This document shows positions 34,950 through 42,867 of a stretch of 64,000 nucleotides of DNA, piece after piece; positions within the stretch are counted from its first letter, which is position 1; each line of letters begins with the position of its first letter. A program made the position numbers and the translations under genes. This stretch comes from Escherichia coli (GTDB taxonomy: Bacteria > Pseudomonadota > Gammaproteobacteria > Enterobacterales > Enterobacteriaceae). The notes under the pieces are model-generated. The model did no database searches, was not told the DNA's origin, and saw only the letters and a program-made list of their open reading frames with translations. The DNA lies in assembly GCF_041248615.1 (NCBI RefSeq), contig NZ_CP158426.1; one strand, given 5' to 3'.

Positions 34950-36266
34950 ATGGCCGTCAATCTTACTGAAACAGCCATCCGAGCATTGAAAGCAAAAAAG
35001 ACATCGTTCTATGTCTGGAGCAACAGCTCTCAACGTGGCACTGGACGACTTGGTGTCAAAGTTCAGCCTTCTGGCAGCAAGATTTTCTATTTCCGCTATT
35101 ACGTGGAAAAAGGGAAAAAAGAAAGATTCATTCAATTGGGTATATGGCCTGAGATGAAACTGGCCACAGCGAATGAACTGGCAAAAAAGTATGGTGCCTG
35201 GCTCATTGAAGGAAAGGCTCCCCAGGCAGAACTGGAACGACAACAGTTTGCAGAACAGCAGCGGATACAACTCCATCAATCACAGGGCTCATTTGAAGCA
35301 TTGATTCATGGTTATGTTAACAAAATGAAAATTGATAATAAGAGGACATGGCAGGATGTTCTGAAACGCCTTGAAAATGAATGCTATACAGTGATCCCCC
35401 GTGAAACTAAAGCTAAAGATGTGACTTCCGGACAGATTAAACATATCCTGGCCGGGATCATTCAGCGCGGTGCTGTGGTTCACTCTAACCGGATCCGTTC
35501 TTACCTGATGGCTGCATTTAACTATGGACTGAAAGCAGATAACGATCCGATGAACACAAGTGTAGGGATTACTTTTGGGCTGGAGGCAAATCCGGTGTCA
35601 GTGATACCGAAACAGTCATCTGCTGAAAAAGTCGGTGATACCTGGCTGACACTTGAAGAGTTGCGTTTTCTAATGGAACATTTTGCTGAAGCAACCAACG
35701 TTGGATTATTGATGCAACATTTGATCCGATTCTGTATCTATACCGGAGGGCAACGTCCTTTCGAAATGATCGCCAGTCAGTGGTGTGATGTTGATTTTCA
35801 ACAAAAAACGCTGCTGGTGACTGCTGATGTCTCTAAAAATAAACGAGAGCATTTGATACCGTTGACTGAATCAGCATTACAGGAATTATCCTGTGTGCAG
35901 GAGTTAACAAAAGAAAAATCCAGCCCTTACATTTTTCCACTTTCGACTAATGGTAAGCGTCCGGTTCGTACGGACAGTCTGGCTCGCGCTATCATGTATT
36001 TCCGGGCTTTTAATCCTGACTTTAAAATTTTTACAGCACGTGACTTACGTCGGACCTGTAAAACGTTAATGGGAGAAGCTGGGATCAGTAAGGAAATCCG
36101 CGATCGTATTCAAAATCATGCGTTGAACGATGTCAGTTCAAAACATTATGATCGATACGATTATTTGCCAGAAAAACGCAGAGCACTTGAGATCTGGGAG
36201 GACCGGGTTAATAACTATCAACAGCAAACAGGCAATAATGTTGTCAATCTGTTTGGCAGAAGGTGA
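34950..36266 (+). CDS. tyrosine site-specific integrase (P4-type)
   Basis: 438 aa; N-terminal arm-binding-like region (KVQPSGSKIFYFRYYVEKGKK); C-terminal catalytic-region motifs (HDLRRT..., ...HYDRYDY); good ribosome-binding site AAAAGAGG. Confidence 0.88.
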   Translation: MAVNLTETAIRALKAKKTSFYVWSNSSQRGTGRLGVKVQPSGSKIFYFRYYVEKGKKERFIQLGIWPEMKLATANELAKKYGAWLIEGKAPQAELERQQFAEQQRIQLHQSQGSFEALIHGYVNKMKIDNKRTWQDVLKRLENECYTVIPRETKAKDVTSGQIKHILAGIIQRGAVVHSNRIRSYLMAAFNYGLKADNDPMNTSVGITFGLEANPVSVIPKQSSAEKVGDTWLTLEELRFLMEHFAEATNVGLLMQHLIRFCIYTGGQRPFEMIASQWCDVDFQQKTLLVTADVSKNKREHLIPLTESALQELSCVQELTKEKSSPYIFPLSTNGKRPVRTDSLARAIMYFRAFNPDFKIFTARDLRRTCKTLMGEAGISKEIRDRIQNHALNDVSSKHYDRYDYLPEKRRALEIWEDRVNNYQQQTGNNVVNLFGRR

Positions 36267-39458: not shown

Positions 39459-39686
39459 ATGTGGAAGCCGTTAAGAGATGAGAACCGTTTATCAATTTTG
39501 AAGATCTATGGATACACCTGTGACAGACTGGTACGAGAAAAGGAACGCCAGAAAATTACGTCTATTTCTCGTTCACAAGCCTGGAAACTGGAACGTGAAG
39601 GAAAATTCCCGCCACGTAAAACTATTGGAAAGAAATCCTGTGGGTGGTTATTAAGTGATCTATTGTGGTGGATTAGTCAGTATTAA
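39459..39686 (+). CDS. AlpA-family phage/island transcriptional regulator
   Basis: 75 aa; pattern RLV...ISRSQAW.LEREGKFP...GKKSCGW fits the AlpA (prophage CP4-57 regulatory) fold; ribosome-binding site TAAGGAGAG. Confidence 0.75.
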   Translation: MWKPLRDENRLSILKIYGYTCDRLVREKERQKITSISRSQAWKLEREGKFPPRKTIGKKSCGWLLSDLLWWISQY

Positions 39687-40716: not shown

Positions 40717-41277
40717 ATGGCGAGTTTTGCATACATAGACTCTGAAAAATGGTCAAAACTTAATCGCTTAAAATCCATGATTCAGAGATATTTTAAAGAA
40801 CCACTATTGCAGTTAACAGGCGAATTGGGTCGCCCGGATTATACTCTGGCAGACAGAAAACGGTTAGTTCGACTCCTGACGCAGGATATGCAAAGGGGTG
40901 ATATTCTGATTACTAAATCGTTAACTTGTTTTGGTAATACGCCGGAAAAAATACAGGAGGTTTTATCTTTAAGTATCAGACAAGGTATTAATATTTGCTT
41001 TTTTACGTCATCAGAGTTGCCGGATGGTGATGATATTCCTGTGGTACTCACCGGGATGATTTTACCTACAGATATTAGAGGAAAAATTCCCGACATCAGT
41101 ATCCGGAAAATTAAAAGAAAACCAGGAAGGAAAGAAGGGAGTATTCATAGTAAAAATATCAGACAGTTGAAATTGCAGGGGTTCAGTCAGTCACAAACAG
41201 CCAGAAAATTAAGCATCAGTTTATCCACTGTAAAAAGACACTGGGATAAAGGTATTGTTGATCTAACTGCAGAGTAA
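40717..41277 (+). CDS. hypothetical protein with C-terminal resolvase/invertase-type HTH
   Basis: 186 aa; C-terminus QGFSQSQTARKLSISLSTVKRHW resembles the HTH of serine recombinases; the N-terminal region lacks an obvious catalytic serine motif, so likely a regulator or degenerate recombinase. Confidence 0.5.
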   Translation: MASFAYIDSEKWSKLNRLKSMIQRYFKEPLLQLTGELGRPDYTLADRKRLVRLLTQDMQRGDILITKSLTCFGNTPEKIQEVLSLSIRQGINICFFTSSELPDGDDIPVVLTGMILPTDIRGKIPDISIRKIKRKPGRKEGSIHSKNIRQLKLQGFSQSQTARKLSISLSTVKRHWDKGIVDLTAE

Positions 41278-41473
41278 CATTTTATAGTCCTTGTAGCTAT
41301 TGGCAATGGAGTTATAAATACATGTGCGTTGGATAGGTAATATATATTATATCTGTGATGTATAGTATATGTGTAATGATGGATATGATGTACTAATAGA
41401 GCTAATGGTATTCTGATACCAAATAATTAGTTGTGTGTAGATCATAACTCTGTTTAATGTTTTAGAACGTTCT

Positions 41474-41558
41474 AATGTAACTGTGTAACATCATCCTGTT
41501 CTCTAATGTAACAATAGGCAGTAGCGTTTTTCTTAATTGACGCCCAGAGGGTTATATA
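41474..41558. repeat. intergenic repeats: direct repeat TCTAATGTAAC x2 and perfect palindrome CCCAGAGGG-TTATATAT-CCCTCTGGG
   Basis: Read directly in the 380-bp AT-rich gap upstream of the first YagK/YfjJ-like gene; coordinates approximate. Confidence 0.45.
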
Positions 41559-41658
41559 TCCCTCTGGGAACTACTGATACGAATATTAATATCTGCTTCT
41601 GTTGTGTATTGGGTAGGTTAACTATTAGCTTATCTCTGAAAGCAAAAGGAATATTAAC

Positions 41659-42273
41659 ATGATTACGATTGAAACTCTTTACGGTGAATGTCATGAGGCT
41701 CACGGGTTAAAAATAAGAAACCAGGTGAATAACCTCTTCCAGAAACATCCCAGAATAACGGCAATACGGGTGGATCTCCATTATCCTCCCGTGATTGACA
41801 ACGGGGATACCATTACCTGTTTTCCTAACCTGAGTCCCGGAGAGATATCTCGTTTCCGTAACTCGCTGAATGCGAAAATTAATGCAGATCAACACCGTAA
41901 AAAACAACAAGGCAAACGCACCTACGCAACGTCGGTTTGTATTATCTGGGCGAAAGAATATACGCAGTCCTTTAAATGTCATTATCACGTCTGCCTTTTT
42001 TTTAACAAAGACGCCTATTACCACCTGGGAGACTATGAGCGCTCTGACACCCTGAGAGGGTTAATTACCGGAGCCTGGTACAGTGCCTTAGGGTTAGAAC
42101 TGGAAGATCACCAGGGACTAGTTCATTTCCCTGCTAATGGACGTTACATCCTGGATATTAACGATCCTGATTTCCCTGAGCAATATCAGCGCTTATTGGC
42201 ACGTCTGGATTATCTGACGAAGCTCGACACTAAAGCATCAGGCCAGCGTAACTTTGGCTACAGCGGTTTTTGA
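41659..42273 (+). CDS. YagK/YfjJ-family protein (Inovirus Gp2-like domain)
   Basis: 204 aa; architecture and motifs (…HYHVCLFFNKDAYYHLG…) typical of the YagK/YfjJ family common in CP4-like islands; ribosome-binding site AAAAGGA. Confidence 0.55.
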   Translation: MITIETLYGECHEAHGLKIRNQVNNLFQKHPRITAIRVDLHYPPVIDNGDTITCFPNLSPGEISRFRNSLNAKINADQHRKKQQGKRTYATSVCIIWAKEYTQSFKCHYHVCLFFNKDAYYHLGDYERSDTLRGLITGAWYSALGLELEDHQGLVHFPANGRYILDINDPDFPEQYQRLLARLDYLTKLDTKASGQRNFGYSGF

Positions 42274-42300: not shown

Positions 42301-42867
42301 ATGTATACAGAATCAAACGTTAAGCTTTCCTGTAACGCCCTCTGGCAAAAGTATGTCCTTGCAACTCTGTATCGGGCTGCAGCTACACATCCTAAAATTA
42401 AATTATTACAATTTAAATTAATACCTTGCCCAGGTATGAACAAGGCAATTCCCTCTCTGATGGCTGATTTTACTGGTGAACTGCATAGACTAATTTCTGA
42501 ATATTTGCAGTGCAAGCGACGTAAAGATAAATCTGTTGAGCCCGCCCCTTTATATTATCTCTGGAGTAGGGAAGCTGTGGCTAACGATACCACTCCTTAT
42601 CTTATGGTACTGCTACTTAATAACGATGTCTGGTGTAAGAGTCGTGAGGTGGTGGCTCTCAGAAATCTGATTGAGCAGGCGTGGGGAAAAGTATTGGGTG
42701 AAGATAACTCCATTACACATCTGGTTGTGTATCCTGAAGTGCTGTCGTTGGTATTTGATGCAGCTAACACATACAACGCTGAGCCTGGTGTACTGGAACA
42801 GACGGCCCAGGCTTACATTGAATCGCATGGTGCCATTGAACGTCATCTTGGGTGTAGTGACTTTTAA
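42301..42867 (+). CDS. YagK/YfjJ-like paralogue (divergent)
   Basis: 188 aa; similar length and motif spacing to the preceding gene (…PYLMVLLLNNDVWCKS…); followed by hairpin AGGGCCTTTCGCTGAGAGGCCCT. Confidence 0.45.
   Translation: MYTESNVKLSCNALWQKYVLATLYRAAATHPKIKLLQFKLIPCPGMNKAIPSLMADFTGELHRLISEYLQCKRRKDKSVEPAPLYYLWSREAVANDTTPYLMVLLLNNDVWCKSREVVALRNLIEQAWGKVLGEDNSITHLVVYPEVLSLVFDAANTYNAEPGVLEQTAQAYIESHGAIERHLGCSDF

Follow-up and report, generated by a model that had tools for sequence, protein, structure and literature searches.

The stretch of DNA analysed here, hereafter the window, comprises 64,000 nucleotides (nt) of an Escherichia coli chromosome (contig NZ_CP158426.1) and carries an island inserted beside nfeF. 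The island begins with a P4-type integrase gene, followed by two hypothetical genes, alpA, a gene for a 248-amino-acid (aa) protein, a gene for a 186-aa helix-turn-helix (HTH) protein and then a gap, after which come a 204-aa gene of the YagK/YfjJ family, a degenerate 188-aa paralogue, the insertion sequence (IS) IS2 and cargo genes. All genes from alpA through yagK share the same orientation. The subject of this work is the gap, in which the original prediction, made from the sequence alone, had noticed direct repeats and a palindrome, taken as repeated regulator-binding sites plus a hairpin (operator, terminator or origin-like element). The gap extends from 41278 to 41658, between the HTH gene, whose stop codon ends at 41277, and the ATG of the YagK-like gene at 41659. 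It is AT-rich and non-coding, as had been noted, with 381 base pairs (bp) of 32.5% GC against 50.9% for the whole window. A 41-codon open reading frame starting with TTG (41537-41662) spans the palindrome and meets the yagK-like start in an ATGA overlap; it has no Shine-Dalgarno site, strain differences within it are three non-synonymous versus two synonymous, and it was set aside as a chance frame that is probably not a gene.

The palindrome occupies 41543-41568 on the + strand, with the 5' arm CCCAGAGGG (41543-41551), the 8-nt loop TTATATAT (41552-41559) and the 3' arm CCCTCTGGG (41560-41568). Its 9-bp arms are perfect, as claimed, and seven of the nine stem pairs are G:C; its true end lies 10 bp beyond position 41558, where it had been thought to stop. 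The same segment is a near-perfect dyad of 26 bp, symmetric at 24 of 26 positions and readable as 12-2-12, in which the outer 9 bp are GC-rich and the centre is AT-rich. Upstream of it the 11-mer TCTAATGTAAC indeed occurs exactly twice on the + strand, at 41471-41481 and 41502-41512 (31 bp from start to start), the second copy with the extended unit GTTCT(CT)AATGTAAC. A third copy with one mismatch is distant, at position 35669, and the hexamer TGTAAC occurs three times inside 41476-41512.

Chance was estimated from shuffles of the gap, with dinucleotide shuffles for the general counts of inverted and direct repeats. Of 2000 dinucleotide shuffles, 68 contained a perfect inverted repeat of at least 9 bp, and 32 a direct repeat of at least 11 bp within 60 bp (p about 0.016 for the latter). 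When at least six G:C pairs were demanded of the 9-bp inverted repeat, only one shuffle in 5000 reached it. The palindrome is thus clearly non-random, and the 11-mer direct repeat only mildly so.

A conserved element lies at the upstream end of the gap. A scan with one genome per species gave 39 loci, from Enterobacterales and one Colwellia. Many of them keep the whole module of alpA, the 248-aa gene, the HTH gene, a gap of 250-370 bp and yagK, and others have a DUF3987 (YfjI-like) gene before yagK. Every intact locus carries a cassette of about 90 bp directly upstream of yagK, independent of the upstream gene. A cassette profile built for nhmmer found one copy per locus in 46 of 46 sequences, in the window at 41262-41346 (E = 7.5e-9), and no further copy of the cassette boxes, or of the family motif described below, is present within the 64-kb window. 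Both K-12 copies, yagK and yfjJ, have the cassette (L051:7109-7213, minus strand, and L058:6410-6480). It is more conserved than the YagK/YfjJ proteins, which are 47-64% identical, and has no Rfam family.

Three boxes can be distinguished in the cassette, all on the + strand. Box 1, CTAACTGCAGAGTAA (41263-41277), overlaps the end of the HTH gene and has the family form CTAATTGCAGAGTAAC, of which T.A.T..AGAGT is invariant in 30 loci. Box 2 is a small 5-bp hairpin, ATAGT-N7-GCTAT (41284-41300), with the family consensus CAGYC-ATCACA-GGCTG. It covaries: 84.7% of its cells are paired, and both sides have changed in 9 cells versus 2.8 in shuffled data, with none of 500 shuffles reaching 9. One-sided changes in this box, read on the + strand, are G.T in 26 cells and A.C in 2, mostly owing to one inherited U.G pair. 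Box 3, GTTGGATAGGTAATAT (41318-41352), is promoter-like; its family form is AAATTTAGATGTTGGATAGGTATTATA, with GT.GGA..G.TA.TAT invariant, and its aligned -10 in the window is TATATT (41343-41348). It aligns to the yagL-yagK promoter of K-12, TTTAGA-16-TATAAT, to which the K-12 box is identical. This sigma-70 promoter, located in an H-NS-bound spacer, was assigned to K-12 yagK by RNA-polymerase genomic SELEX (systematic evolution of ligands by exponential enrichment; PMC3946193). The region made up of the cassette and the stretch that follows it is a conserved, so far undescribed cis-element of a widespread gene family.

Two length differences were also observed in and near box 3. Its (TA)n tract (41339-41350) is longer by 6 nt in strain ETEC1722 and by 2 nt in RM10740, and the window lacks a 7-bp GTATCTG at 41364 that is present in all six other haplotypes compared. 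Such differences might alter the spacing of the promoter, in the manner of phase variation. Promoter-like sites on the minus strand (41375-41346 and 41306-41279) were discarded, as on inspection they are not conserved in the homologous sequences of other lineages.

Past the cassette, the sequence is lineage-specific and hairpin-rich up to the start codon, and both the palindrome and the repeats lie inside this part. The 3' two-thirds of the gap showed no significant similarity when aligned to other lineages, and neither the 11-mer TCTAATGTAAC nor the palindrome as a whole is present in any other lineage compared. The search of homologous loci for the predicted motifs therefore failed for the repeats and succeeded by half for the palindrome, one arm of which is conserved elsewhere. 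The 3' half of the loop together with the 3' arm contains the family motif ATATATCCCTCTG (41554-41566, + strand; 13-mer ATATATCCCTnTG), whose family-wide form is ATATCCCTnTG. Matches to ATATATCCCTnTG were found in the leaders of Kosakonia (L012, 12/12), Citrobacter (L015, 11/12), Buttiauxella (L018, 11/12), a second Citrobacter locus (L019, 10/12) and Yersinia (L021, 10/12), that is, five leaders scoring at least 10/12 where 0.3 were expected. At these five loci it forms the 5' arm of a hairpin of 22-26 bp located about 20 nt before the Shine-Dalgarno site, for example TATCCCTGTG-ACAT-CACAGGGATA. Between the hairpins of the L012 and L019 types two pairs are exchanged, both in a fully compensatory way (T:A to G:C, C:G to T:A). 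Because ATATATCCCTnTG recurs as a hairpin arm elsewhere, the palindrome of the window is taken to be built on the family motif, with its partner upstream instead of downstream.

A related arrangement is seen in subfamily A, which includes K-12 yagK. There, GTATAGCCCTGCCTGTGTGG complements CACATAGG beside the Shine-Dalgarno site, and the two pair in 86% of cells versus 17-48% in slid controls, for a structure derived from the same sequences; this helix shows no double changes within the subfamily. Over the 13 subfamily-A leaders, five helices have 88.8% of their cells paired versus 28-40% when the partners are slid. Their variation is mostly of the G.U kind with no excess of double changes, and one-sided changes on the + strand are G.T in 28 cells versus A.C in 14 (14 versus 7 pair columns). 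This modest G.T bias is more in keeping with a folded + strand (RNA or single-stranded DNA) than with a protein site in duplex DNA. Independently of these leaders, the island of Photorhabdus khanii was seen to carry a full-length match to the Hfq-binding small RNA isrN (134.6 bits; L024 5099-5241, minus strand), some 0.5 kb downstream of its YagK homologue.

Within E. coli the gap was found in 259 of 5426 complete genomes at 90-100% identity, the exact sequences being restricted to one lineage, and the segment 41440-41660 is at least 98.6% identical across the 259 genomes. A low-stringency BLASTN search with the gap returned no more distant DNA relative, and the protein search likewise gave no homologues between 99% and 64% identity to the window lineage. 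Two candidates for intermediate relatives were dismissed, P0069 being a subfamily-A locus and P0115 a member of the same lineage. Seven haplotypes were distinguished, with about 20 variable sites spread evenly over the gap. In two of the six other haplotypes, ETEC1722 and RM10740, repeat copy 1 carries an A>G change at 41479. Strain C5 (L052) has its loop exactly inverted, from TTATATAT to ATATATAA, with intact stems, which looks like one inversion event brought about by the inverted repeat. Three independent insertions have entered the 381-bp gap, each parting the gene from the cassette: a 113-bp IS5-like miniature inverted-repeat transposable element (MITE) at 41401 in strain W444, with inverted repeats GGAAGGTGCGAATAAG and a duplication of CTAA; in strain EC17CM13, an IS3-family element within repeat copy 2 (about 41506); and IS1 (IS1A) at about 41538 in strain A134_1EC. 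In viral contigs, matches to the palindrome were unrelated hairpins, some of them terminator-like, and one copy of the same island.

The palindrome is predicted to form a stem-loop of -19.3 kcal/mol as RNA and -10.1 kcal/mol as DNA, with pair probabilities of 0.95-1.0. Compared with shuffled sequence, the fold of the whole gap has a z-score of -2.81 on the + strand against -1.50 on the - strand. In the minimum-free-energy fold an extended stem surrounds the palindrome on the + strand (41519-41576; CAGTAG/CTACTG and CGTT/GACG). This stem finds no comparative support; the L048 sequence has one wobble-preserving and one disrupting change in it. Further upstream, a + strand leader hairpin at 41400-41432 (inner GGTAT-TCTG-ATACC, outer CTAA/TTAG) is the counterpart of the subfamily-A hairpin ending in TCTGATACCA; this 10-mer, at 41413-41422 in the window, is common to the subfamily-A leaders L008 and L009. 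The heptamer CTGATAC also occurs twice in the gap, which may be chance in AT-rich DNA, as may the shared TCTGATACCA. Closer to the gene, a predicted + strand helix between 41586-41603 and 41641-41657 covers the Shine-Dalgarno sequence AAGGAA, and the probability of being unpaired in the Shine-Dalgarno zone (41647-41656) is 0.01-0.16 whether or not the palindrome is formed. Since the Shine-Dalgarno sequence is predicted to pair with 41586-41603 either way, the palindrome is not predicted to gate translation directly. A switch model in which the 3' arm would alternately pair with the Shine-Dalgarno sequence was likewise abandoned, the duplex being worth only -3.8 kcal/mol and Shine-Dalgarno accessibility remaining unchanged. 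An Rfam search with the window region and eight related loci returned no family over the intergenic region.

A cis-acting role for the hairpin is plausible because it is far from chance expectation and lies in a conserved cis-element found upstream of all YagK/YfjJ genes examined. The reading that we favour, tentatively and at a probability of about 40%, is that the mRNA of the YagK/YfjJ-family gene begins with a long, folded leader of about 300 nt, in which the palindrome forms a stable stem-loop. It is favoured because the palindrome lies downstream of the conserved promoter box, which in K-12 was assigned by experiment, the leaders of relatives are structured with a bias to the + strand, one arm of the palindrome is homologous to a family motif resembling an anti-Shine-Dalgarno sequence, and its own fold is strong; the common orientation of the genes from alpA to yagK also agrees with it. 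Transcription, which we infer for the window lineage, would enter at the promoter-like box about 190 bp upstream, or as read-through from the co-oriented alpA operon, and the palindrome would then fold, independently of its surroundings, into an RNA stem-loop of high stability. The 3' half of the palindrome is this lineage's copy of the ATATCCCTnTG family motif. Elsewhere the motif is a hairpin arm just before the ribosome-binding site, or pairs with the site directly; in the window lineage its partner is on the upstream side, and the stem-loop would thus belong, in rearranged form, to the same class of leader hairpins. The start site appears to be masked here by another segment, 41586-41603, and the stem-loop would probably act on mRNA stability or processing, or as a handle for a binding protein, and not as a mask of the start site. 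The direct repeats most likely arose as a by-product, and no evidence was found that they work as a functional pair. That they are repeated regulator-binding sites finds no support, the 11-mer being absent from the other lineages and copy 1 carrying the A>G change in two of six other haplotypes.

Among known systems, the palindrome most resembles the leader stem-loops of translationally controlled genes. As in structured 5' leaders whose stem-loops mask or adjoin the Shine-Dalgarno site (translational operators, or stabilising 5' hairpins such as that of ompA), a very stable hairpin stands between a promoter-like box and a start codon, the helices of its relatives tolerate G.U pairs, and the CCCU-containing motif is complementary to the Shine-Dalgarno region. 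Unlike in those leaders, the hairpin of the window is 90 nt away from the Shine-Dalgarno sequence, whose accessibility is predicted to be unaffected, and it belongs to no Rfam family.

Several observations weigh against a leader stem-loop. The predicted folding gives the palindrome no control over Shine-Dalgarno accessibility, and the single-nucleotide polymorphisms (SNPs) at 41465 and 41466 disrupt the predicted helix around repeat copy 1. The -35 element aligned to the K-12 promoter is poor in the window lineage, and a simple promoter scan yielded none on the + strand. Single-stranded DNA of the + strand would account equally well for the G.T bias and the compensatory changes, and the latter by themselves would also fit a palindromic protein site evolving together with its protein. 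Finally, the stem shows no variation in the seven haplotypes or in seven metagenome contigs, in which a scan anchored on the flanks found the palindrome identical, and at so shallow a divergence such invariance is uninformative.

The gene that follows the gap brings in the possibility of a DNA element. The 204-aa protein (41659-42273, + strand; PF11726, E = 4e-55) belongs to the YagK/YfjJ family and is predicted to have the fold of an HUH-type nickase, this predicted fold being closest to HUH nucleases and the replication initiators of Microviridae. Eight residues are invariant in 18 aligned homologues of 47-62% identity (R37, D39, H41, H108, H110, Y185, L186 and K188), and they include an HxH motif followed by YLxK. 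The protein is thus plausibly an HUH-type nickase, of putative catalytic activity. The 188-aa paralogue next to it (42301-42867, + strand; PF11726, E = 6.6e-10) has lost both the HxH motif and the tyrosine motif YLxK. In the literature we found no published account of YagK/YfjJ function. A 2025 PNAS study counts inovirus Gp2-like proteins among the likely core genes of Pseudomonas islands, as it does intY, alpA and a protein with an HTH (PMC12595487); the islands with these probable core functions are reported there to be transduced by a jumbo phage.

Given such a neighbour, the gap might be a rolling-circle origin or an oriT-like DNA substrate, with the repeats as binding sites for the 204-aa protein. 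By nicking single-stranded DNA at the extruded hairpin or close to it, the protein would then bring about replication or mobilisation of the island once excised. The idea of an origin, one of the roles first proposed for the hairpin, gains from the predicted HUH-initiator fold with its HxH and catalytic-type tyrosine motifs, and the layout is attractive. As in the double-strand origins of rolling-circle replicons (IR-I and direct repeats of pMV158, the Ff intergenic region before gene II, the iterons and stem-loop of geminiviruses), repeats are followed by a hairpin of GC-rich stem and AT-rich loop before an HUH-like gene, and the repeats here are two units of 11 bp. However, a nick hairpin would be expected to be conserved along with a conserved active site, and palindrome and repeats are both confined to one E. 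coli lineage. The shared motif also shifts its context, being a 3' arm here, a 5' arm in L012-type loci and outside the hairpin in subfamily A. There are just two repeats, of which copy 1 is mutated in some strains, and the DNA hairpin is worth only -10 kcal/mol. Moreover, the element belongs to an integrase-bearing chromosomal island with no sign of autonomous replication, and the plasmid and phage collections searched yielded no small replicon in which a YagK homologue is the only initiator. Two apparent cases were discarded. The 11.7-kb record CP101363.1 (L056), labelled a Salmonella plasmid, is a linear contig with chromosomal aer/nfeR/nfeF-like genes and the left end of the island, including a 100% identical YagK gene, and appears to be a mis-assigned chromosomal fragment; a 4.5-kb record presented as a phage is unverified. 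An origin at the palindrome is, in our estimate, a live rival of the leader stem-loop, though not a likely one. A broader version is also improbable in our estimate, namely that the cassette with the hairpins and repeats of each lineage is the double-strand-origin or oriT-like origin of the HUH nickase family, serving rolling-circle replication or single-strand transfer after AlpA/integrase excision of islands of the P4-integrase type, with the palindrome as specificity hairpin. Just past the palindrome, GAACTACTGATACGAATATTAATATC (41568-41593) bears a loose likeness to AACTTGATATTAATAAC, the core of the phiX174 origin; this may be chance.

It is also conceivable, if not likely, that the palindrome has no current function, and arose when the family motif was duplicated locally in inverted orientation in a recent, shallow lineage, with the 11-mer repeat due to slippage or chance. 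The lineage is very shallow, and therefore perfect stems prove little; the density of SNPs is roughly even over the gap, which tolerates IS1, an IS3-family element and the MITE, and the 11-mer repeat by itself attains only p about 0.016. Moreover, the downstream part of the island is ridden with insertion sequences and its second yagK paralogue is degenerate. Against this stand the rarity of a GC-rich 9-bp inverted repeat at the composition of the gap (one in 5000) and the hairpins of other lineages, which carry the same motif and have been kept by compensatory changes.

Proteins of the island could also recognise the palindrome as duplex DNA. The 186-aa protein (40717-41277, + strand) has a C-terminal HTH of the resolvase type (HTH_7, E = 3.7e-5) and a degenerate resolvase-like N-terminal part. 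HTH_7 alone was detected in it by Pfam, with no match to the resolvase domain PF00239; its match to an invertase of the Mpi family is faint (E = 0.007), and on inspection the context of the catalytic serine and arginine is not kept. It looks like a catalytically dead resolvase, and its K-12 counterpart, YagL, is annotated as resolvase-like. The AlpA-family regulator (39459-39686, + strand) is 69-76% identical across related loci. A dimeric island protein (the 186-aa protein, AlpA or YagK) might thus bind the 26-bp dyad as an operator and cause a roadblock or repression downstream of the promoter. This would agree with the perfect dyad, GC-rich in its outer 9 bp and AT-rich in its centre, with the HTH gene directly upstream, and with the recurrence before homologues of palindromes of 22-26 bp whose arms change together. 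The likeness extends to the sites of serine recombinases (hix/gix of 26 bp, or site I of res), which share a 26-bp dyad of the 12-2-12 form, an AT-rich centre and an adjoining gene for a resolvase-like HTH protein. Unlike in those systems, the protein of the window seems inactive, there is no second site, and similar palindromes stand at loci that lack the 186-aa protein or a yagL gene, which also speaks against an operator. The dyad does not cover the promoter, being placed some 190 bp downstream of the aligned -10. Its half-sites are head-to-head here and tail-to-tail in L012-type loci, and a rigid dimer could not read both alike. The excess of G.T over A.C in the relatives is unexpected for a duplex protein site. 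An operator, also among the roles first suggested, is accordingly doubtful to us.

The palindrome was also suggested to be an intrinsic terminator, which could serve either the HTH gene upstream or some antisense transcript. This is highly improbable because, for all its strong 9-bp GC-rich stem, which resembles that of a Rho-independent terminator, no T-run follows the stem on either strand (the + strand continues AACTACTGATAC and the - strand CGTCAATTAAG), a terminator scan gave 0 sites, and the hairpin is wrongly placed, 266 bp downstream of the stop codon.

By itself, the palindrome is a modest, lineage-restricted feature of an ordinary kind, beside a poorly understood gene family. Genes of the YagK/YfjJ family, also called the inovirus Gp2 family, adjoin int and alpA in very many islands of enterobacteria and Pseudomonas, including two cryptic prophages of K-12. 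The picture that emerges is of a gene always accompanied by one conserved, promoter-bearing cassette and a folded leader, and coding for a predicted HUH nickase. If the folded region acts as RNA, in the control of expression, these islands would merely regulate a gene; if it acts as DNA, as a nick site or origin, they would replicate and mobilise themselves.
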